Assembly: GCA_964016885.1 (NCBI GenBank)
Contig: OZ024750.1
Span: 33,418,001-33,482,000, forward strand
DNA: 64,000 bases
Direction: 5' to 3'
From: Eledone cirrhosa
Taxonomy: Eukaryota
Shown: piece by piece, positions 15,027-59,405 of the stretch
How the letters are laid out: the number at the start of each line of letters is the position of its first letter
Numbering within the stretch: position 1 is the first letter of the stretch
Made by a program: the position numbers and the translations under genes
The notes under the pieces: generated by a model
Told to the model about the DNA's origin: nothing
The model's input: the letters and a program-made list of their open reading frames with translations, nothing else
Databases searched by the model: none

Positions 15027-15039
15027 CGTGAACAATCAG

Positions 15040-15150
15040 GGGTAACCACAGTAAGTAAGGTACTCAATACATTAATGAAGCATAAACATCATGCTTGATA
15101 TAGAAATGGCTTCTACAGGACTAGAACTGATTCCTTCAATTGAATGAAAC

Positions 15151-20380: not shown

Positions 20381-20734
20381 TAATGCAACAATAATAATAA
20401 TAATAGATTTGCATCTCAGAATGTAATCTGATTAGTTTAGAGTATCAGATTGATTCCGATAGATATCGTTTGTATTGATTTTTCTAAGATGCAATAATAT
20501 ACATATTATACCTTAAGCATGGAATCATTCACTTTAAATATATTTCAATTTATTTTACAGCAAAACGCAAATTAAATGAATGCCAGTGTGTAAGGTATAT
20601 ATGGCTTCTGTTTATTTGGCTATCGAGTAATTGCATATATAGAGGGAAAAAAAGATAATTGATTGGCAATCGATATAGATTTGCTAATACTTTAATTACA
20701 ATGTATTGCTATATATCGTAGACAATATTTCAAT

Positions 20735-20800
<66 letters not shown>

Positions 20801-20957
20801 GTTCTGACAGTAAGTGCACTGAATATAGTTCTGGCAGTGCCACTATCATTATTAGCATCAATATCTCAATATAAATATCAATTTTGAATACATCACATAC
20901 ATATGATACAAACATATATACACACGTGCAAGCACTCATATATATATATATATATAT

Positions 20958-21003
<46 letters not shown>

Positions 21004-21305
21004 ATAATAATAAATTTGAAGACTAAAATCTGTTATTTTAATATATATATATATATTATATATATATATATATATTATATATATATAGTAATATATAGTT
21101 ATTATTATATTTATATTTATATATATATATTATATAATATATATATATTATATATAGTAATATATATGTAATATATAGTTATATTATATTTATTTATATA
21201 TGTTTGATATGACTATAAATATGTAGAGGTAGTAGTAAGTAACTAGCCGGTTACCAGTATGACAAAAGGCTCAATGCAAAATTTTCAAGTGTTTTACAGA
21301 GCCGA

Positions 21306-21617
21306 GATACAAAGTGTTAAAACGATCAGATTTTATTTTTAGAACATTTATTAGCTGACAATTGTTTCTTCCAGAGGGAAGTCTGGAATCATAGGAGCAT
21401 AAGGAATGTCGAAAACGTGTTAAATGTAAATTCCTCCGAATTACTGGCCATGTTTGTTATTGCCTTTGACACTAATAACTATGTACCCTAAATGTTCTAA
21501 ATGATTAGGATTCTATTTACACGTTTTCGACATTCCTTATGCCTCGATTGAAGAAACAATTGAGTCTGCTATAATAATGTTCTAAACTAAAAATGTGATC
21601 GTTTTAACACTTTGTAT
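21306..21617. repeat. Diverged fold-back repeat (arms ~21306-21435 and ~21507-21617)
   Basis: atacaaagtgttaaaacgatca...gcataaggaatgtcgaaaacgtgt and its reverse complement. Confidence 0.75.
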
Positions 21618-21683
21618 ATATAATATATATATATTGAAAGGATAACAAGGACGATTGATTACACCTTCGTTGCATTTATTGGT

Positions 21684-21771
21684 AGGTGACGCGCGTTTCG
21701 CCACTGATCAGCTCAAGGTTCGATCTGTATCAATCCTACCCCGCCTCAATAATCGGCGGCTCGACGGACCC
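21684..21771 (-). ncRNA. Degenerate type-I hammerhead motif
   Basis: Minus strand GGGT-CCGTCGA-GCCGC...GTGGC-GAAAC-GCGC-GTC-ACCT, then AATAAA; the 5' core has two deviations from CTGANGA. Confidence 0.5.
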
Positions 21772-22177
21772 TTTTAATATATAGAAAATGAAATTATATA
21801 TATATATATATATATTATTAATATATAATATTATAGGATAGTATCCGGATTCGGCTTTAAGACAACACATACTCAAAATTGATAAATATATATTTCTGCA
21901 ATATTATTACAACAATATGAGACCTCCCAATATTATTATAATACTAATATAATATAATATCTATATATATCTATAATATTATATAATATAATATCATATA
22001 TATATATATACAAAAAAATAAAAAACAAAAATAAATTACCGAGAATCACATTTCTCTATAGATTCTAACGAACCAGAGCTACAACATACGTTAAAAGGCC
22101 AAACACACTGAGACGATGGTTAAACCATTATCCGCACGGCCATAGAAACAACCAAGTAATTCGGGTCAAACAAACAG

Positions 22178-22250
22178 GTCCCTGTAGCGCAGCGGATAGC
22201 GCGCTGGACTTCTAATCCAGAGGCCGTGGGTTCGAATCCCACCAGGGATG
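22178..22250 (+). tRNA. tRNA-Arg-TCT: tRNA-Arg (anticodon TCT), intronless
   Basis: Complete 73-nt cloverleaf: acceptor GTCCCTG/CAGGGAT, D-stem GCGC/GCGC, anticodon arm CTGGA-CTTCTAA-TCCAG, T arm GTGGG-TTCGAAT-CCCAC, discriminator G. Confidence 0.95.
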
Positions 22251-22252
22251 TT

Positions 22253-22291
<39 letters not shown>

Positions 22292-22317
22292 TGTGTATGT
22301 ATATATACATATATATA

Positions 22318-22480
22318 CATGGACACACTGGAAGAGGAAGACCAAGGTTAACGTATGTTGATGCCCTAAGGGCAGACATTGGTCTGTTTGAGACGCGGGA
22401 CATGCCAGCGATAATGAGGGACAGAGACCGCTGGAGAGATCTAGTCCATGGATCTCGGGAATTTTACCCGCCCTAGAATA
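22318..22480 (+). mobile_element. RTE-type LINE 3' end
   Basis: HGHTGRGRPRLTYVDALRADIG...MRDRDRWRDLV. Confidence 0.7.
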
Positions 22481-22516
22481 CATACATGCACATATATATA
22501 TATATATCCTCCTTTT

Positions 22517-22564
<48 letters not shown>

Positions 22565-22654
22565 TATATGGATTTATACATACAGTTTAAGATAAAAAAA
22601 GCTACCAAAAGGGCACACTTACATAGTCACACACACACAGACACACACACCCAC

Positions 22655-22712
<58 letters not shown>

Positions 22713-22789
22713 AAGGTATCATGGTACTGTGTATATCTAGGCACATTTACACATACATACACTCACACACTCACACACAAACACTTTCT

Positions 22790-23175
22790 GTTTCCCCAAA
22801 AGTTGTTGGCCTTGTGCCTAAATTAGAAACTGTCAGTATCAGTAGAGCGTCAGACAACATGCTTTGTGGCATAGAGTTATGGCCCCTTACGTTCCGTGTT
22901 CAAATTACGCAGAAGTTAACTTTGCCTTTCATCCTTACGGGGTCGATAAAATAAAGTACCAGTCACGCACTGGGGTCGATTTAATCGATATTCCCCTCCC
23001 CAAAAATTGCTGACCTTGTGCATATATAAGAAACCATTATTATTTTCCTTGTATATCTGAGTTCAAATTTCGCCGAGGTTAACTTTGCCTTTCATCCTTA
23101 CGGCGTCGACAAAATAAAGTACCAGTAATGCACTGGGTAATTGCTGGCCTTGTACCAAAAGTAGAAACAATTATT
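22790..23175 (+). mobile_element. Tandem SINE family A copies
   Basis: Consensus matches at ~22790-22830, 22830-23043 and 23057-23175. Confidence 0.8.
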
Positions 23176-23399
23176 TTCCTTGTATATATGTATATTCACA
23201 TATAATCCCACCGGGGGCCTCAACCAAGGGCTTGGGTGATGGTTTGTTGATGGCACATTTTCCAACTCCATAGTTAACTGATTGTTACAAATTATATCAT
23301 ACATAAAATATACCCTTTTGTCTATGGGTACAACGTAGTTTGCCCTTCCAATATTACGTTGACGATGCTCTTCACAAAATGTAGGCAGTATTAGTAAGT

Positions 23400-23595
23400 A
23401 CGGTGGATTGGCAGTATCGGTAGAGGGTCGGACGCCATGCTTTTCAGCATAGTTACGTCCCTTTACGATCTGAGTTCAAATCCCGCCGAGGTTGACTTTG
23501 TCTTTCATCGATAAAATGTCTTTCGTCGATAAAATAAAGTACCAGTAATACACTGGGTAATTGTTGGCCTTGTGCCTAACGTAGAAACAAGTATT
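23400..23595 (+). mobile_element. SINE family A
   Basis: Consensus match; gtattagtaagtacg duplicated at both flanks. Confidence 0.85.
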
Positions 23596-23689
23596 AGTAA
23601 GTACGATTTTTTAAATTTCTTTTATACAAGATTTAGCTCGCATGTGATCCATTATTAGTATTATTAATTTTTAAAATACTTCCCAGCGG

Positions 23690-24045
23690 AAAAAGACAGA
23701 AGCTGCCTGCCAGACAGTTAGTTGAAAGGTGGGGGAGAGTGGCGAGCATGGTCCGTGTGTATGGGCCTGTCTTGAGCATACGCCTGTAGATTGGAGCAGA
23801 AAAACTGTGAGAGGGCACTTTGCCCTAGTGGACAGGGTGACTGTGGCTTTTGTGGGCTTTCTACACGAGTGATACTTAGCGTTTCATCACCTTTGGGGAA
23901 TTTGTTATGTTTGTTTTAAATGTTTATTTTATTAGTCTCTTTTATAAATGTCATTTTACACAAAGAAAATCCCACACTGTATCGTTCTGTACCGTCTTTA
24001 ATGTTTCCTTAATGTGATCCCTGTGTCGCTAATAAAGATATCATT
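23690..24045 (+). mobile_element. Possible L1/Tx1-like LINE 3' end
   Basis: VERWGRVASMVRV..stop, followed by a UTR ending in aataaaga. Confidence 0.35.
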
Positions 24046-24054
24046 ATTAATCTT

Positions 24055-24243
24055 GTGAATTGGCAGTATCGGTAGAGGGACGGAGGCCATGCTTTGACGC
24101 ATAGAGTTACGGCCCTTGCCATTCTGAGTTCAAATCCCGCCGAGGTTAACTTTGCCTTTCATCCTTATGGGGTCGATAAAATAAAGTACCAGTAATGCAC
24201 TGGGTAATTGCTGGCCTTGTGCCAAAAGTAGAAACAATTAATA
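24055..24243 (+). mobile_element. SINE family A
   Basis: Consensus match. Confidence 0.85.
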
Positions 24244-24540
24244 TTATTTCTTTACTTACATTGTACCATATGATACATAGTAGATGTCTCTATAAAGCTA
24301 CACACGGTTTTTTTTTCAAGAATTCATGATTAAAAGGTCAAGTCTCGCTAAGTACATCCTCTTTATCTTTATATTCAAATCATTACAGATAGAAAAAGAC
24401 GAAGAATATACTTAGTGACTTTTGTATGATAATCACGAGAAGTTCATTCCTTGCACATATATATATATATATGTGGGGGGGGCGTGTGTGTGTATAAATG
24501 TGCGTATAGCATATTTGAAAATAAACTATGTTTATTTTAA

Positions 24541-24910
24541 AAGTGACGTAGTCACTACTTTAAAATTCATAATGAATGGTCTTCAAAATGTTTTTAAATA
24601 AACATACAGTATATTATCAAATATACTATACTTGCATTCATACATACATCGCTATTTCAGGACTCCAATACTAATTCCTAATTTTTGCTGGACCGGCAAC
24701 CGCTTTGTTTAAACAGCTCTTAAAGATAACTGGAATTCTATAAGAATCCAGCTTATATAACACTCGGCAGAAGCGAAGGAGTATGTAGTCTTGATAACCG
24801 CTTATGAGCTAGAAACGGGACCGTCGATTACTCCCCTTTGCTTTTGCCGAGACTAAGTAAGTGACGTAATCACTACTTTAAAATTCATAATGAATGGTCT
24901 TCAAAATGTT
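24541..24910 (+). mobile_element. Partial-tandem element with ~52-bp direct repeats (24541-24592, 24859-24910) enclosing a hammerhead
   Basis: aagtgacgta(g/a)tcactactttaaaattcataatgaatggtcttcaaaatgtt occurs twice, 318 nt apart. Confidence 0.75.
24763..24851 (+). ncRNA. Type-I hammerhead motif, U3-A8 core variant, with extended helix I
   Basis: GTAGTC-TTGATAA-ccGCTtatgAGCta-GAAACGG-GA-CCGTC-GATTAC; outer pairing CTCGGCAGAAGCGAAGG / CCTTTGCTTTTGCCGAG. Confidence 0.7.
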
Positions 24911-25032
24911 ATACATTTATATATATATGTGTGTGAGTGTGTGTGTGTGTGTGTGTAAAAGATAAACAGAAATAACAACACAATCGGTACAGTATATGGA
25001 AGGGATATATTAGGTTAACGCTTGATATAGCG

Positions 25033-25082
<50 letters not shown>

Positions 25083-25231
25083 TAAAGAGGCAGGCTGTAT
25101 GGTTTCTGTAAACAAAGTTTAAGAAGGTAATAGGGACGTAAACAAGAGAACAAAAGTACCGATGGATTTAAACCCTGTGGCGGTATAACTGCGGAGCAAG
25201 GTTTTTTCCGTGCGACCTCAGTAAAGTGAGT

Positions 25232-25266
<35 letters not shown>

Positions 25267-26536
25267 GGAAGTCGGTATGTTTTAACTTATCCTATTTTCT
25301 CTTCGGTTACTCACTTATATGTGCCATTGTCCTGTGCTCCCTCTTCTATTCGGTATGTTTACTTCGTTTTTTCCTCTTTCCCATTTTTTTCTTTCTTCCT
25401 CTCTCTTCATTATCATTTCTTTCCCTTATGGCCTTTTGATGGATAAAAGGCCTCGGGCGGGCTGCCGATCGATGTCCTGTTTATAAGCGCCCGCCGAAAC
25501 ATCTATGATCTGCCGTAAACAGCTGATGAACGGTTACTTTTCTTCTCTTGTTTACGTCCCTATTTTACCATCTTACACTATATATATTATTATTTACTAT
25601 ATATATTTATTACTGTTGTGAAATATTGTGGCTTTTTTTGGTTGTAACTTCTCTGTTTTTTAGCCTAGGAAAATATAGATATATGCCTACGTATATAATT
25701 ACATGCATATATGTATTTATTTTCTTTTATTAATTGAGTTCTTTACACGAGGAATTAATATTGGTTTTGAAATAACTAATTAACCCGCGTGTGTTTTATA
25801 TTTTACTCTTAATAATTCGGCCGGAGAATTATATTCCCATTTGCCCTTTATAGCATAACTTTCTGCATTTACTGCGGTTATGAAAAGCGATTCTTATTCG
25901 GGTACAACTTCTGATTTAGCCTAAGAAAATATTTATATGCGTGTGTAATTTATACGAGCATATATTTATTTTTTAATTTTCAATTGAGTTCTTAAACACG
26001 TTGGATTGATAATGTTTTCAAAAAAACTAATTAACCCGCGTATATATTATTTTTTTCCTCATTTCGTGAGTTGTCTCCCCTTCCCGCTTCGTGTCGCTAT
26101 GATACTTCCTCAGTCAAAAACTGCTGGAATTTCAAATTTGGCGGTCATTCGAGGCGAGAGAGAGATACTTTACGGACATGATTTTTGACAGCGGTAAGAA
26201 ATTTGTTTTCTTATATCAATGTTTAATGGGCTTCCACTGATGATTTATAAGTGCCCACCTAAATATATTCTTACATGAATATATATTAGGCTTCTACATA
26301 AACTGGAAACATTCTCCCAAACTTGTAGAAAACTTATAATGAAACAATTGTTTGGAAAGAGAGATATACTTTAACTTTAATTATATCTCATAAAATAATA
26401 CAACTGGTTTTTCCACATTATACATATTGTTAGCACCCCAAACACTTAAATTGGGTTTATATTTTAATATAACCTAATGTTTGTTGAGTGAGATGGTTAC
26501 CAGTCAGAGTTTAGCTTTAAACTATCTCTGTTATTG

Positions 26537-26586
<50 letters not shown>

Positions 26587-26590
<4 letters not shown>

Positions 26591-26611
26591 TTGATACGAA
26601 CTCTAAATAAG

Positions 26612-26651
<40 letters not shown>

Positions 26652-26676
26652 CTTATTTAGAGTTCGTATCAAATGT
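26587..26676. repeat. Short fold-back centred on (TA)n
   Basis: acatttgatacgaactctaaataagatgtttt-(AT)n-aaaacatcttatttagagttcgtatcaaatgt. Confidence 0.85.
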
Positions 26677-27549
26677 TATATCTTAAAGTATTTCAAAATA
26701 GTCAACCGAAGCTTCATTCAAGTTCTACATGTTGTTAATGTAGCCTAATCTTCAAAGTTCCTCTAATATATTTAGGCTAAATAGTCTACACTACATATGT
26801 AGCAGATAATCGATGACTTATAATTATTCGAGTAAGTTATAATTTACTGTAATAAAGTACGATAATTTATGTAGCACAAACTTAATATATTCTTTTATGT
26901 GCGTCTTTATTCGCATTTCATTATATTTGAATGTTTGACAGTGCTTCATTGCTGAGTATGTATATATTAGTAACGCTTTGATAATATTCAAATCGAAATA
27001 TTTTTAAATGAACTTTCGATAGATACCCTCGTCTTTTCCTAGCAGTCAATGATTTTATTTCTTTTTCTAAGATCCTTATGAAGATATTTCCGGAACAGAA
27101 ACTATAATGATTATCTACAAAAAAAACTATTCTCTCCATATCACTATAAAATATATTCGTATTCTAGTTATGGAAAAGTCAAGATATTTCTAGTATATAA
27201 TTATTTCTTACAACAGATTTTCAGGTTTCCCTTACAACAGATTTTCAGGTTTCTCTTACTTATTTCACACTACAGAACACTGATCCACTTTTTTCCATTA
27301 GTTTCGTTAGGCTATATTTGTTTAAAGTTAGTTTTGATATTCATACATATTGCAAAGAATATGTTGATGTCATTATAAAAGTGACATAAAATATTATTTC
27401 TTTTTCTGTAATTGAAACAGAAAATCTCATTTAAATTTAAGAAATGTACAGCAATTATTTAAACGAATGAAAACAATCCATACTAAACAACTACACTTGA
27501 AAATACTTTCCTAGATTTATTAATAGTGGTTCGTATCTGACTATTAAAT

Positions 27550-27848
27550 GTGAGTAATCAGAGACATATTTTACGGGCAAAACCAACCAGCAGGAATCCC
27601 ACAGGTAGACCCCAAGGAAGATGGTTGGATAAGATTCATGAGCTTGGTTCGTCTTGCTTAGGGATCAAAACGGATCCGTTAGAGGCGAATGCTTCTAACA
27701 GGACCTGGTGGAAGGTGTGTTTGAGGACTCTGCCACCACGACCCTCTCAGGAAGAAGAAGAAGAAGAAGAAGAAGAAGAAGAAGAAGAAGAAGAAGAAGA
27801 AGAAGAAGAAGAAGAAGAAGAAGAAGAAGAAGAAGAAGAAGAAGAAGA
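27550..27848 (+). mobile_element. RTE LINE 3' end with (GAA)n tail
   Basis: KPTSRNPTGRPQGRWLDKI...LG......A.NRTWW...L..LPPRP followed by a pure GAA array. Confidence 0.8.
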
Positions 27849-29564
27849 CAGAGTAATCGTTTCTGTTGACATTGTAACCATTAAACAGTTTTATATGACG
27901 TTAAGTCAAATGTCACATACACTTCTCTTGTCATAACATTCACTATCCAATTAAATCGTATGAAGCTAAACAATAGTTTCCTAAATATATGTCTTCACAA
28001 TATTACAATATACTTCCAGAACCTTAATTCTGTTATGTGCGTCAAGCTAAATTGACTCTATACATTACGTGACGTTACCAGAATAGAATGTGCCATACTC
28101 AATTGAAGAGATACATTAGATGATCTTGTGTAATAATAAAATGTTGTTCTGTCTCTCTCTCATTTGTTTGTTGAAAGCAATTACATTTTCATTTATCCTC
28201 CTACAAATAAATATAAGCAATATGGATATCAAATCCCACTATCATTCAGTTTCCAAGGAGATTTCTAAGTTTCCAAGAACAAATTAGATTATTCTCTTTC
28301 AGTTCACCAATCGCATTTTGTCCTTTTTATGTGGTGTCAATATTTCGCTCTCTTTTCGAAGACTTGTGTCTATATCTAGTAATTATTATTTGCCTACACA
28401 ACTTAGTAAATAGATCACTCCATGCGTGTATGTTTAGGTCTAACAACTATAAGGATTATATCATAATTCACAAAACATTACTGATGATTTACATTGCATA
28501 TTCTTGTATGTTTGAATATGTTTATTATATAGTCGGAGAATGATGGCTCCCATAATATTTGTAGATTTCACGGATTACTGGGGTCATTGTGATTTATATA
28601 CGAATCCGTTCAAATGTTATTGGATATCTCTTCTGAGTTAATTACGGAATATTAAGAAAGAATTTCTACATTTACGCTGCGATTTGATCACTGTGATTTA
28701 CCGTCATCTATTCATCAATACTTGTGTCTATTTTCTATAAGTTGATAATCGGGAGCGAAGTTTTAAAGCATTGCTTAAAATCTAAGGAGGTGATACACAT
28801 TTAGAAAAAGTAAATGTTCATTGCCAATAATGATGTTAGTTTGTGTTCAACATTAACAAATATTCTGCTATTCAGCAGTTAGGTTTGGGAAGATATGTAT
28901 CATACTTACACAAACAAGTGAGGGTTGATGTTAAGAAGGGAAGCCAGTTATAGAATTTTGTTTCAAAGTATCTCATCCAACCCATGCTAGTGTGGGAAAA
29001 TTGATGTAAATTGATAAATTGATGACGATTAATAACAATTAATTTCAGGAAAATATTATGGTTGCAGTTTATTGAATTAGCTGGTATTATTGATGTGCTA
29101 GCATCCAAATGAGATTGTGATTAGGAAAAAGTATAATTTTGCTAAAGTTACATACATGACCTTTTCTACAGTATTTTTTTTTTCTTAAATTAGTTATTTA
29201 TTAAAACACCTTGTACGTATAAATATGAGTTACATAATGAATGTAACTTACAAGGAAACAAAATGTATGTATATGAATGCATATAAAAATGAGAAAACTC
29301 ATCGCTAGAACAGCCGCTAAAGCAGCTAAATGCTGTCAAAGACAGCGATGGGCAAAGATGCCTCGGAGGACAAAGATCAGCGGGCAGTGGTCAACTGAGA
29401 GACAATCCACAAGTTGGGTGACAGGCAGATGAAATATAGAAAAGATTCAAAGGAAGGGGAGGACAAGGACAAGTGTATCGGGTTACATACGACTAGTAAC
29501 ACTGCTAACACACACCTACATACACACACACGTGTGTGTGTGTGTGTGTGTGTAATGCGCTTTG

Positions 29565-33746: not shown

Positions 33747-35299
<1,553 letters not shown>

Positions 35300-35309
35300 T
35301 ATATATATA

Positions 35310-35417
35310 TAGGAACCAGTAAGACCCCGACGGCTGAGCTCAAGCCGTTTCGACGTATTGAGTATTGAGTACTTTGGTGCGTTATGGTCCACCTGGTTCC
35401 TTACCACATTTCCTTCG

Positions 35418-35418
<1 letters not shown>
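35310..35418. mobile_element. Family P rearranged copy abutting the LINE 5' junction
   Basis: Antisense short arm 35310-35356 joined to the sense 3' part 35357-35418. Confidence 0.75.
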
Positions 35419-35465
<47 letters not shown>

Positions 35466-35469
<4 letters not shown>

Positions 35470-36290
35470 CAACTAGAAATTGATTGACATATATATATAT
35501 TTAAAATAAACACATGAAACAATCACAGGGGATAATTTGTAAAGTGGGTAATCACATATAGCTAGGTAGGTAACTAATTAAAGTTTAACTAGAGCTTCAA
35601 ATATTACCTTTTAAAAAATGATTAATCCTCCTTGTATATATTTCATTAAAGAAATATATTTCACCAATAATCCGTAAAGTCACAGTAGTCAAATGTTGGA
35701 TCTTCAGCAAGGGGGAAGAAATAACTATCTGTGTTTACACATCAAATGCAAATCTGCGAGTGACCCGTCGCACGTGTTGCAATTCTAAAACTAATAACAA
35801 CATGCTAGCGTCCACCCATTGGCGTGAATAGGTTGGTCGACAGCTATAAATAGCAGCCGAGTCATTTCAACCGATGTATCTCTACAATTAAGGAGCCGTT
35901 TATATATCCAAAATAAATTAAATTAAATTAAATTAAGGGAGTCATGTCCGAGACATGCGCCATATCCATTATTGGTGAAATATATTTTTTTAATGAAATA
36001 TATACAAGGAGGATTAATCATTTTTTAAAAGGTAATATTTGAAGCTCTAGTTAAACTTTAATTAGTTACCTACCTAGCTATGTGTGATTACACACTTTAC
36101 AAATTATACCCTGTGATTGTTTCATGTGTTTATTTTAAATATATATATGTCAATCAATTTCTAGTTGATATAAAATGCTCGGATCTATTCATTGGAATCT
36201 TTGAGCTTATTCTACGGTGGGTATGACGCATATCTCGGACATGACTCCCTTAATTTAATTTAATTTAATTTAATTTATTTCGGATATATA
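35466..36290. repeat. Interleaved fold-back repeats (35466-35672/35969-36172 and ~35902-35964/36222-36290)
   Basis: ~205-bp and ~65-bp reverse-complement arm pairs, bounded by (TA)n. Confidence 0.85.
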
Positions 36291-38829: not shown

Positions 38830-39030
38830 TAACGAAGGAAGTATGGTAAGAAACCAGGTGGACCAAAACGCTCCAGAGTACTCGATACTTTGGGTAGTAG
38901 AGTGGGTAACAGGAAAAGAGTCAGGACACCGACGACAGAGCTCAAGCCGTTTCGACGGCTATTTCTGGACTGTCCAGAAAAAGCCGTCAGAACGGCTTGA
39001 GCTCAGCCGTCGGGGTCCTGACTCTTTTCC

Positions 39031-39031: not shown

Positions 39032-39101
<70 letters not shown>

Positions 39102-39169
39102 GGTAAACAGAAATAACAACACAATCGGTACAGATATATACTGTTATATACGCATGGATGATTCTTGAG

Positions 39170-56076: not shown

Positions 56077-56695
56077 GGAGTGAAAGTTTTAGTAAGTAAG
56101 TTAATTTTTTTAATTCTTTTTAAAATTTTCTTATTTTACGTCTTTCATATTATTGTTCTGCATCCTCCTGCATTGAACCACCTAGGTACTATGACATAAC
56201 TTATGTATTTGCTAGCATTAGCGTACATCTGTACGCATATGTTAGTAGATATACTAAATTCTCTATATTTATCTCCAAATTATTTATTTTGTTGAGCAAA
56301 CCTGCCAAAACCACTACTAATTTATTGGTGTGGTAGTAGGCTTCTGTCATCTTACCATCCCACTCCTACCGACTAGCCTCAGTGTCACGTGATTGATTCT
56401 TTAGAATCTGCCATTTGACCAGAGACAGCGAGCTTTTCAGTGCATGGAATCCAGTCCCCGCTAGCTGTTCCATCTACCGAATTATTATTATTTTTATATG
56501 AGTCCCCAGTGTCCGCGCATTGCCTGAAGACTTAGCTGAGAATAGACTCCCTGATGACGCAATGAATTCTCGACGGTTATATTACGTAACTGTCTTTATC
56601 CCATTGCAGAAACTAATTAGTTGGAGTGAAAATTTTAGTAAGTAAGTTAATTTTTTAAATTCTTTTTAAAATTTTCTTATTTTACGTCTTTCATA
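56077..56695 (+). mobile_element. Partial-tandem (pLTR/retrozyme-like) element, 546-nt unit plus ~73-nt repeat, in (TA)n
   Basis: ggagtgaaa(g/a)ttttagtaagtaag...tctttcatat at 56077 and 56623. Confidence 0.8.
56546..56627 (+). ncRNA. Type-I hammerhead ribozyme motif
   Basis: ACTCC-CTGATGA-cGCAATG...CATTGCa-GAAAC-TAATTA-GTT-GGAGT. Confidence 0.75.
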
Positions 56696-56742
56696 TATAT
56701 ATATAGTAAGGTACTCAATACTCGAACTGAGAAGAAGGAATC

Positions 56743-56793
56743 AGCTTCCTGATGATTTCTCACGAATGAAACAGTTGTAGTCCTGTAGAAGCT
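56743..56793 (+). ncRNA. Type-I hammerhead ribozyme motif (family Q)
   Basis: AGCTTC-CTGATGA-tTTCtcacGAAt-GAAACAG-ttgtagtc-CTGTA-GAAGCT; enclosed by inverted agtaaggtactcaatac / gtattgagtaccttact. Confidence 0.7.
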
Positions 56794-56890
56794 TTTTTAT
56801 ATTAAACATTTATACTCTGCTTTGTATTGAGTACCTTACTTACTTACTGTGGTTACTCCCGATTCAACCCGGGATTAACTTATAACTATA

Positions 56891-59098: not shown

Positions 59099-59405
59099 CC
59101 AATAGTAACTAAATGTTACACACCAATACACTGTATCACTATATATATAGTGTATTTATATTATATACATGTATATATATTACTTAAGAATGCATAGTAT
59201 GTAAATAAGAACCAGATGCTGGTGTTAATACACATGTTTCCCACTGAATATCTAATTCACAAACAAGCATAGGCTGCTTAAATAGGTTCCACTACAGTAA
59301 TTTGTTATTACTCATCAGCTGGGTATATATATATATAACCTGATGATTTCATATGCATGAAACAGTTTTAGTCCTATAGAAGTCATTTCTATATAACATA
59401 AAGAT

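Follow-up and report, generated by a model that had tools for sequence, protein, structure and literature searches.

A more-than-unit copy of a multi-copy 318-nt repeat with a U3-A8 type I hammerhead motif in Eledone cirrhosa, a likely non-autonomous derivative of Penelope-like elements

What kind of element carries a hammerhead-like motif that departs from the strict core consensus is the question raised by positions 24541-24910 of the 64,000-nt stretch of Eledone cirrhosa DNA analysed here (hereafter the window), which is AT-rich and abounds in microsatellites and short repeats. Reading of the letters alone had assigned to this locus a variant hammerhead set on a long rod inside a partially tandem unit, and had taken it for a small element of retrozyme size that strict-consensus searches would miss. 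Here, we addressed whether the motif, the unit and their relatives in public sequencing runs agree with this assignment. The explanation that we favour with reasonable, though by no means full, confidence is that the locus represents 1.16 units of a 318-nt repeat that exists in many copies and is endowed with a U3-A8 type I hammerhead, likely a non-autonomous derivative of Penelope-like elements (PLEs) and probably inactive.

The core letters of the hammerhead were read directly at 24785-24831 on the plus strand, where a relaxed descriptor matched as well; its positions (3, 8, 10.1 etc.) are numbered according to the general convention. The structure opens at helix I, as in type I, and allows six, three and three pairs in helices I, II and III, respectively. 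Helix I (24785-24790/24826-24831, GUAGUC/GAUUAC) includes one G-U pair and is followed by the core UUGAUAA at 24791-24797 (U3 = 24791, then U4, G5, A6 and U7, A8 = 24796, A9 = 24797), by helix II at 24798-24811 with pairs 24800-24802/24807-24809, by the GAAA box from G12 to A15.1 at 24812-24815 (GAAAC spanning 24812-24816), by helix III at 24815-24824 closed around a GGAC loop, and by the GUC triplet at 24823-24825 (U16.1 = 24824, C17 = 24825), with the cut predicted after C24825. Both departures from CTGANGA fall exactly on the compensating 3-8 pair, which stays Watson-Crick as U3-A8, and the core TTGATAA with its GTC and GAAAC was found as the sequence-only reading had described it. The same holds for the two mismatches noticed at the base of helix II, C24798·A24811 and C24799·U24810, both unpaired in this copy. 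The former puts C10.1·A11.1 in place of the 10.1-11.1 pair, which is the most conserved pair of the stems, and a search filter of PMC3088659 would discard a motif of this kind; active hammerheads with U·U at the helix II base have been published. The C10.1·A11.1 mismatch weakens the claim of activity for this copy, not its homology. Since only one hammerhead is present and helix II bears an extra mismatch, the copy is probably an inactive, crippled, dead-end offspring.

A descriptor that accepts C3-G8 or U3-A8 found two sites in the real window as against one in 40 shuffled windows, a chance rate which leaves the 18-bp rod described below out of the reckoning. Hammerhead models of Rfam failed to match this motif at gathering score and even at E<=10, and they likewise missed a hammerhead with canonical core at 56749, which makes the Rfam negative a weak test; the whole Rfam scan returned one tRNA at gathering score, to which the E<=10 threshold added chance-level miRNA matches. 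The tRNA gene (22178-22250, plus strand, 74 bits, anticodon UCU, Arg) is located between microsatellites. Scanning of metagenome and viral contigs with the hammerhead pattern yielded 0 loci in each. The hammerhead with core CUGAUGA at 56749 belongs to a second, unrelated type I family at 56705-56842 and has a U·U helix II base, a 3-bp helix III and an 8-nt loop within long inverted arms; its relatives at about 59339-59399 (plus strand) and 15034-15137 (minus strand) are 5′-truncated near the core, with (TA)n in front of them, and in the one near 15100 the core is decayed. To the left of this family, 75-bp direct repeats (56076-56150/56622-56696, 97%) delimit one more partial-tandem unit with a period of 546, in which CUGAAGA and CUGAUGA words near 56525 and 56551 fail the descriptor.

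The unit that accommodates the U3-A8 hammerhead is bounded by direct repeats of 52 bp, the first at 24541-24592, where the more-than-unit copy starts, and the second at 24859-24910, both on the plus strand. They are identical at 51 of 52 places (the sole difference being G24551/A24869), extend on neither side and set a period of 318 nt, exactly as had been claimed. The resulting unit (24541-24858, plus strand) has 36% G+C, is devoid of a coherent ORF, no long reading frame being found in the frame listing, and in size and composition conforms to what is expected of retrozymes (150-450 bp, G+C under 50%, non-coding). Its predicted fold is more stable than that of shuffled sequences (z = -4.43, none of 100 shuffles being as good). 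Relative to the common 3′ ends of its family the unit is circularly permuted, and the entire copy is a permuted 1.16-mer with one hammerhead only. Neither blastn nor nhmmer revealed a second copy of the unit within the 64-kb window besides an inverted fragment. At three paired places (24548/24866 and 24572-24573/24890-24891) both 52-bp repeats carry the same non-majority letters, absent from about 90-97% of the aligned depth of organism A (see below). Because these letters are common to both, the repeats likely originate from one template copied in more than one round; a local duplication at a later date may be an alternative source of the redundancy. Several repeats of other kinds were encountered in the window: a SINE-like one of about 200 nt, three to five diverged copies of which lie upstream of the unit at 22793-24246; a near-perfect palindrome with 45-bp arms centred on a TA run (26587-26676); and further long hairpins, for instance near 38925-39030.

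Relatives of the locus were sought in four of seven listed public sequencing runs; these four, designated X1, X4, X5 and X6, were aligned to positions 24495-24912 at 80% likeness. The family comprises 3,470 contigs in X1 (organism A) and 963 contigs in X4 (organism B), while 3,027 and 2,591 RAD reads match it in X5 and X6, respectively; it is, hence, a multi-copy family of thousands of contigs, the unit of which includes a type I hammerhead. As the share of sampled words present did not exceed 29% in any run, the aligned contigs and reads represent other copies and not this locus. Scanning of metagenome and prokaryote genome contigs for the pattern of the abundant segment gave 0 loci in each. 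Among the best 16 of 4,579 records, the junction from the end of the unit to its start is crossed by X1 records 1-4 and X4 records 9-12, and X4 record 9 covers 24556-24882, that is, more than one unit; it follows that the 318-nt period is a trait of the family. Head-to-tail junctions and a 327-nt span are found elsewhere in this manner, and two cores occur in none of the same 16 records.

Letters of the hammerhead vary unevenly between copies. In helix III, G24817 is replaced by A together with C24822 by U in 83/84% (X1), 88/87% (X5), 90/90% (X6) and 16/10% (X4) of cases, and since these changes occur at matching shares, both the G-C and A-U forms of the pair exist. In helix II, substitution of G for U24810 restores C24799-G24810 in 82% of X1 (61 contigs) and 83% of X4 (16 contigs). 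The suggestion that the family consensus repairs helix II is thereby borne out in one half: G24810 is a minority letter in the RAD runs (37% in X5, 23% in X6), and among the best 40 of 251 difference rows none restores A24811 to a pairing letter, the majority differences listed there for helix II and its loop being at 24800, 24803 and 24805. An ATG at 24804 in loop II was considered as a conserved start codon and dismissed, T24805 being changed to C in 59%, 73% and 90% of copies in three of the four runs (47% in X4), with a stop following. In the same 40 of 251 rows, majority differences affect 0 of 13 core places as against 6 of 22 places in helices II and III (p = 0.046), while comparison of the core with the unit-wide rate gives p = 0.24, which makes conservation of the core no more than suggestive. 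The lowest best-run share among these 40 rows is about 0.77 (17 shares were computed and the rest read off), and if the rows are ranked by share, as they appear to be, then a share of about 77% is probably the upper limit for C3, G8 and G11.1 in every run. Minority letters of this copy itself emerge as differences at 80-99%. Taken as they stand, these shares suggest that U3-A8 is likely common to copies beyond this one, and we only infer it for the family at large. Depth of X1 over the core (1,456-2,477) is about 1% of the peak (228,750), owing to divergence of the majority of copies in the rod; most members of the family, too diverged at the core to be judged, could carry C3-G8 or no hammerhead, and 41-61 X1 contigs bear the variant letters inside the hammerhead. 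For the diverged subfamilies, a consensus of loose ends (agreement 0.6-0.7) displays GUC before the core, in register, and a pairable rod, in which C24763-G24851 becomes U-A, A24769-U24845 becomes G-C and two pairs are added; the arms of this consensus come from different records of runs with the same species label, so their pairing is a putative one.

The rod that extends helix I occupies 24763-24851 (plus strand), its outer 12 pairs having a predicted probability of 0.98-1.0. Beyond helix I it begins with a 4-nt bulge, after which 18 more pairs are possible between 24763-24780 and 24832-24851 (with a 2-nt bulge), in good accord with the approximately 17 counted before; z-score of its fold is -4.40 (0 of 200 shuffles as good). 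The hammerhead itself is mostly not formed in the predicted fold of the monomer, where pairs of helix III have a probability of 0.01 in this copy, and a competing helix 24788-24793/24816-24821, engaging the 5′ strand of the core with helix III, reaches about 0.54. With the majority letters of X1 the probability of the competing helix rises to 1.0, helix III staying at 0.01 or less. The changes at 24817 and 24822 strengthen the competing helix too, so that their covariation alone is no proof of helix III. Between two copies, helix III is predicted to form a self-duplex of -14.7 kcal/mol, and replacement of U3-A8 with C3-G8 would stabilise the “off” fold by about 3 kcal/mol, all of these folding energies leaving tertiary contacts out of account. 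A weaker “off” helix is, in terms of this model, a possible reason for the U3-A8 variant. Taken together, the Rfam negative even at E<=10 and the multi-copy family with pair-keeping changes in helix III and in the rod uphold the view of a retrozyme-sized element overlooked by strict searches.

The loose ends of other copies, judged from the best 24 of 770 rows, converge on two positions. One 3′ end, at 24646, runs into TA repeats in 21 contigs of X1 and in 310 and 229 reads of X5 and X6, and the other, at about 24675-24683, does so in 24 contigs of X1, 18 of X4 and in 160 and 137 reads of X5 and X6. Both ends, located 139 and about 168 nt past the cut site and 30-37 nt apart, delimit an interval (24646-24683, plus strand) followed at each of its borders by (TA)n in copies from X1, X4, X5 and X6; by analogy, it may be equivalent in size to the optional Penelope “tail” of 30-40 bp described in PMC8557442 and PMC11167929, the latter placing the tail of an Anolis PLE between two internal priming sites, with priming shown in vitro. 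Just before the common 3′ end, and inside the most widely covered segment (about 24580-24634, the depth peak in X1 and X4), a perfect 8-bp hairpin is folded at 24608-24627 (plus strand), which may be the region recognized or primed by Penelope reverse transcriptase (RT). Ends at 24734/24737 coincide with a GAATTC site at 24733 and were rejected as ends of the element; those at 24597 and 24680/24683, situated at TTAA and AATT and met among the rows listed in the RAD runs only, were not accepted as natural either. Depth of X1 rises at 24675-24677, and a 5′ boundary near 24680 is possible.

The left end of the copy is abutted by an inverted, 5′-truncated fragment of the same family (24487-24542, minus strand), which matches 24591-24648 with 81% identity over 58 nt (blastn E 1.7e-9) and whose outer end falls at the common 3′ end of the family (24646). 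Origin of this fragment by inversion in the same event was rejected on account of its 81% identity as compared with 98% between the direct repeats: its divergence from them is too great for a common template, and it is, by this comparison, probably an older neighbouring copy. Such an inverted truncated neighbour is typical of Penelope insertions as portrayed in PMC8557442, and insertion of PLEs beside earlier copies is mentioned in PMC6765202. On the right, the copy is flanked by a (TA)n(TG)n microsatellite (24911-24957, read directly), a similar tract lying on the left at about 24457-24493, and no target-site duplication is separable from the microsatellites on both flanks. One more small repeat begins just to the right of the element: a (TG)n tract leading into one and the same 40-nt sequence is found at 24928-24997 and at 39069-39139 (96% over 71 nt). 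The locus thus combines a partial tandem, an interval of tail size, an inverted truncated neighbour (81%) and a microsatellite target, all of them traits of the Penelope type.

Eight frames of 20500-29500, picked from 48 listed, had no match among Pfam domains, and an ORF uniting RT and GIY-YIG between pseudo-LTRs (pLTRs) was absent from the same eight frames near the unit. In other copies, beyond the 24 of 770 loose-end rows considered, read-through into an ORF may occur. The RT frame at 33953-35500 (minus strand) lies 9 kb off, separate from the unit, and matches RVT_1 only (Pfam E 2e-27); it is 5′-truncated, open over 515 codons and starts in a TA repeat, with Argonauta hians providing the named relative of highest identity (62%, among 120 listed), and an exact look-up of this frame gave no match. 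From this one transposon protein, an octopod would be the likely host. Penelope families are reported to have been recently active in Octopus vulgaris. The unit is likely a protein-free passenger of Penelope elements, that is, a non-LTR retrozyme. Its membership in this class is probable rather than established, two-core arrays and circular RNA being the defining traits.

The following course of events would account for the locus. Tandem or more-than-unit copies would be transcribed, two hammerheads would pair via helix III, the sequence of which is nearly self-complementary, and cleave after GUC (24825), and monomers of about 318 nt freed in this way would be ligated to circles. As the predicted monomer avoids the active fold and helix III can pair between copies, cutting may be confined to tandem transcripts and circles may be stable: in the monomer, the 5′ strand of the core would pair with helix III, lengthen the rod and keep the circle uncut. 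A Penelope-type RT-endonuclease acting in trans would then cut one strand of (TA)n DNA and begin reverse transcription at an internal position of the RNA, namely at either of two sites 30-37 nt apart, and more than one round of copying of the circle or tandem would give permuted, terminally redundant inserts such as this one. U3-A8 keeps the 3-8 pair Watson-Crick and is predicted to cost the “off” helix about 3 kcal/mol of stability. The boldest version, i.e. an undescribed, very abundant octopod retrozyme family with fixed U3-A8 and C·A helix II base, U3 selected to loosen the “off” helix that protects the circle, and a Penelope tail at the TA-joined ends, appears doubtful to us. If it were true, the two TA-joined 3′ ends would be direct genomic evidence of internal priming by Penelope RT on retrozyme circles in more than one round. 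The double, tail-like 3′ end of a unit that encodes no protein offers a simple genomic test of whether Penelope enzymes mobilise animal retrozymes, which is still deduced indirectly.

The strongest competitor to a passenger element holds that the unit is a solo pLTR of an autonomous PLE, a truncated partial-tandem remnant whose hammerhead acts in the RNA of the full element. Distances of 139 and about 168 nt between the cut and the 3′ ends are similar in order to those in the Anolis PLE, for which PMC11167929 gives the cut at 26 nt and priming at 111-118 nt into the ORF; the inverted neighbour and the TA targets are PLE traits as well, U3-A8 is known from the pLTR hammerheads of Cercyon, and Penelope families of Octopus vulgaris are recently active. 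Against this, copies run end-to-start with no ORF in between (X1 records 1-4, X4 records 9-12), the loose ends listed behind the tail enter TA repeats and share no coding sequence (best 24 of 770 rows), RT and GIY-YIG are missing from the eight nearby frames, and the architecture of the hammerhead is canonical, not of the minimal pLTR type, all of which leaves this origin unlikely in our judgement.

A lower probability still is given to a SINE- or satellite-like family, in which the hammerhead is a dead relic or the property of a minor subfamily and rod and repeats have spread independently of self-cleavage. That the core attains about 1% of the peak depth, that the inactive helix dominates the predicted folds, that pair 10.1-11.1 is restored in none of the listed rows and that core conservation is unremarkable against the unit-wide rate (p = 0.24) all fit such a history, which nevertheless has to reconcile itself with 13 core places free of majority differences, among the rows listed, next to 6 of 22 varying in helices II and III in two organisms (p = 0.046), with core departures that amount exactly to the compensating 3-8 pair, and with retention of GUC and a pairable rod by diverged subfamilies. 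Mere resemblance arising by chance in a local hairpin, with the 52-bp repeats as a local duplication, would explain the silence of the Rfam hammerhead models, which, however, missed the canonical core at 56749 too; the descriptor rate of one in 40 shuffled windows, counted even before the rod, and the family with its more-than-unit period in other copies argue against it, and the repeat family in public runs has already largely refuted this extremely improbable reading.

The known systems closest to the element include metazoan non-LTR retrozymes of coral, Mytilus and axolotl (Cervera and de la Peña, 2020; PMC7229834), which resemble the unit in length (170-400 nt), low G+C, lack of an ORF and self-pairing of the whole unit, and whose type I hammerheads likewise have a helix I of 6 bp, a short helix II and a helix III of 2 bp with a tetraloop. 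Axolotl HHR_Amex2 from this set has a mismatch at the helix II base, U·U in place of the C·A at 10.1·11.1 observed here, and the 318-nt unit differs from the retrozymes described there in its U3-A8 core and single hammerhead and in being known from DNA alone; for the published retrozymes, an array that contains at least two hammerheads is the defining feature. The word “octopus” does not occur in the main text of that paper, i.e. no cephalopod example is given there. A recent preprint (bioRxiv 10.64898/2026.07.22.740005) regards retrozymes as non-autonomous derivatives of PLEs, the same origin as proposed here, with monomers being non-transposing offspring and two complete hammerheads characterizing active elements; it covers 31 vertebrates and 4 invertebrates, and neither “octopus” nor “mollus” appears in the portion of its text available.

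Hammerheads from pLTRs of Schistosoma Cercyon PLEs (Cervera and de la Peña, 2014; PMC4209133) exhibit the same U3-A8 covariation, S. mansoni alone having about 1,300 such motifs, and share with the element a dimer-type helix III, partial tandems, a tail-like double end, an inverted neighbour and a microsatellite target; the dimer mode is attributed there to most animal type I hammerheads. They are minimal, with long helix II, short helix I and almost no helix III, whereas the motif at 24785-24831 combines canonical proportions with a long rod and no linked ORF. Partial tandems, an inverted truncated neighbour, a tail of 30-40 bp and microsatellite targets are likewise reported for PLEs in PMC8557442, as found here. 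Natural U3-A8 hammerheads with the same 3-8 covariation, several in number and active in vitro, were presented by Perreault et al. (2011; PMC3088659), whose text, in the section consulted, makes no connection between them and repeats of animals, and this copy in addition lacks the 10.1-11.1 pair. Natural occurrence of U3-A8 variants, stated in the sequence-only reading, is already in print, and the novelty implied for them is not supported, PMC3088659 and PMC4209133 (the latter in animal PLEs) having come earlier.

Our search found neither a paper on hammerheads or retrozymes of octopus nor a report of this family from cephalopods, though supplements might list an octopus family or a U3-A8 retrozyme; “ribozyme” and “hammerhead” are absent from the consulted part of the 2026 repeat annotation of Octopus vulgaris, and for giant squid there are 235 listed loci of Rfam hammerhead-1. 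Retrozymes, hammerheads of Penelope elements and the rare U3-A8 core are each already known, and what the present locus adds to them is a cephalopod family, probably unrecorded, that strict descriptors and Rfam miss.
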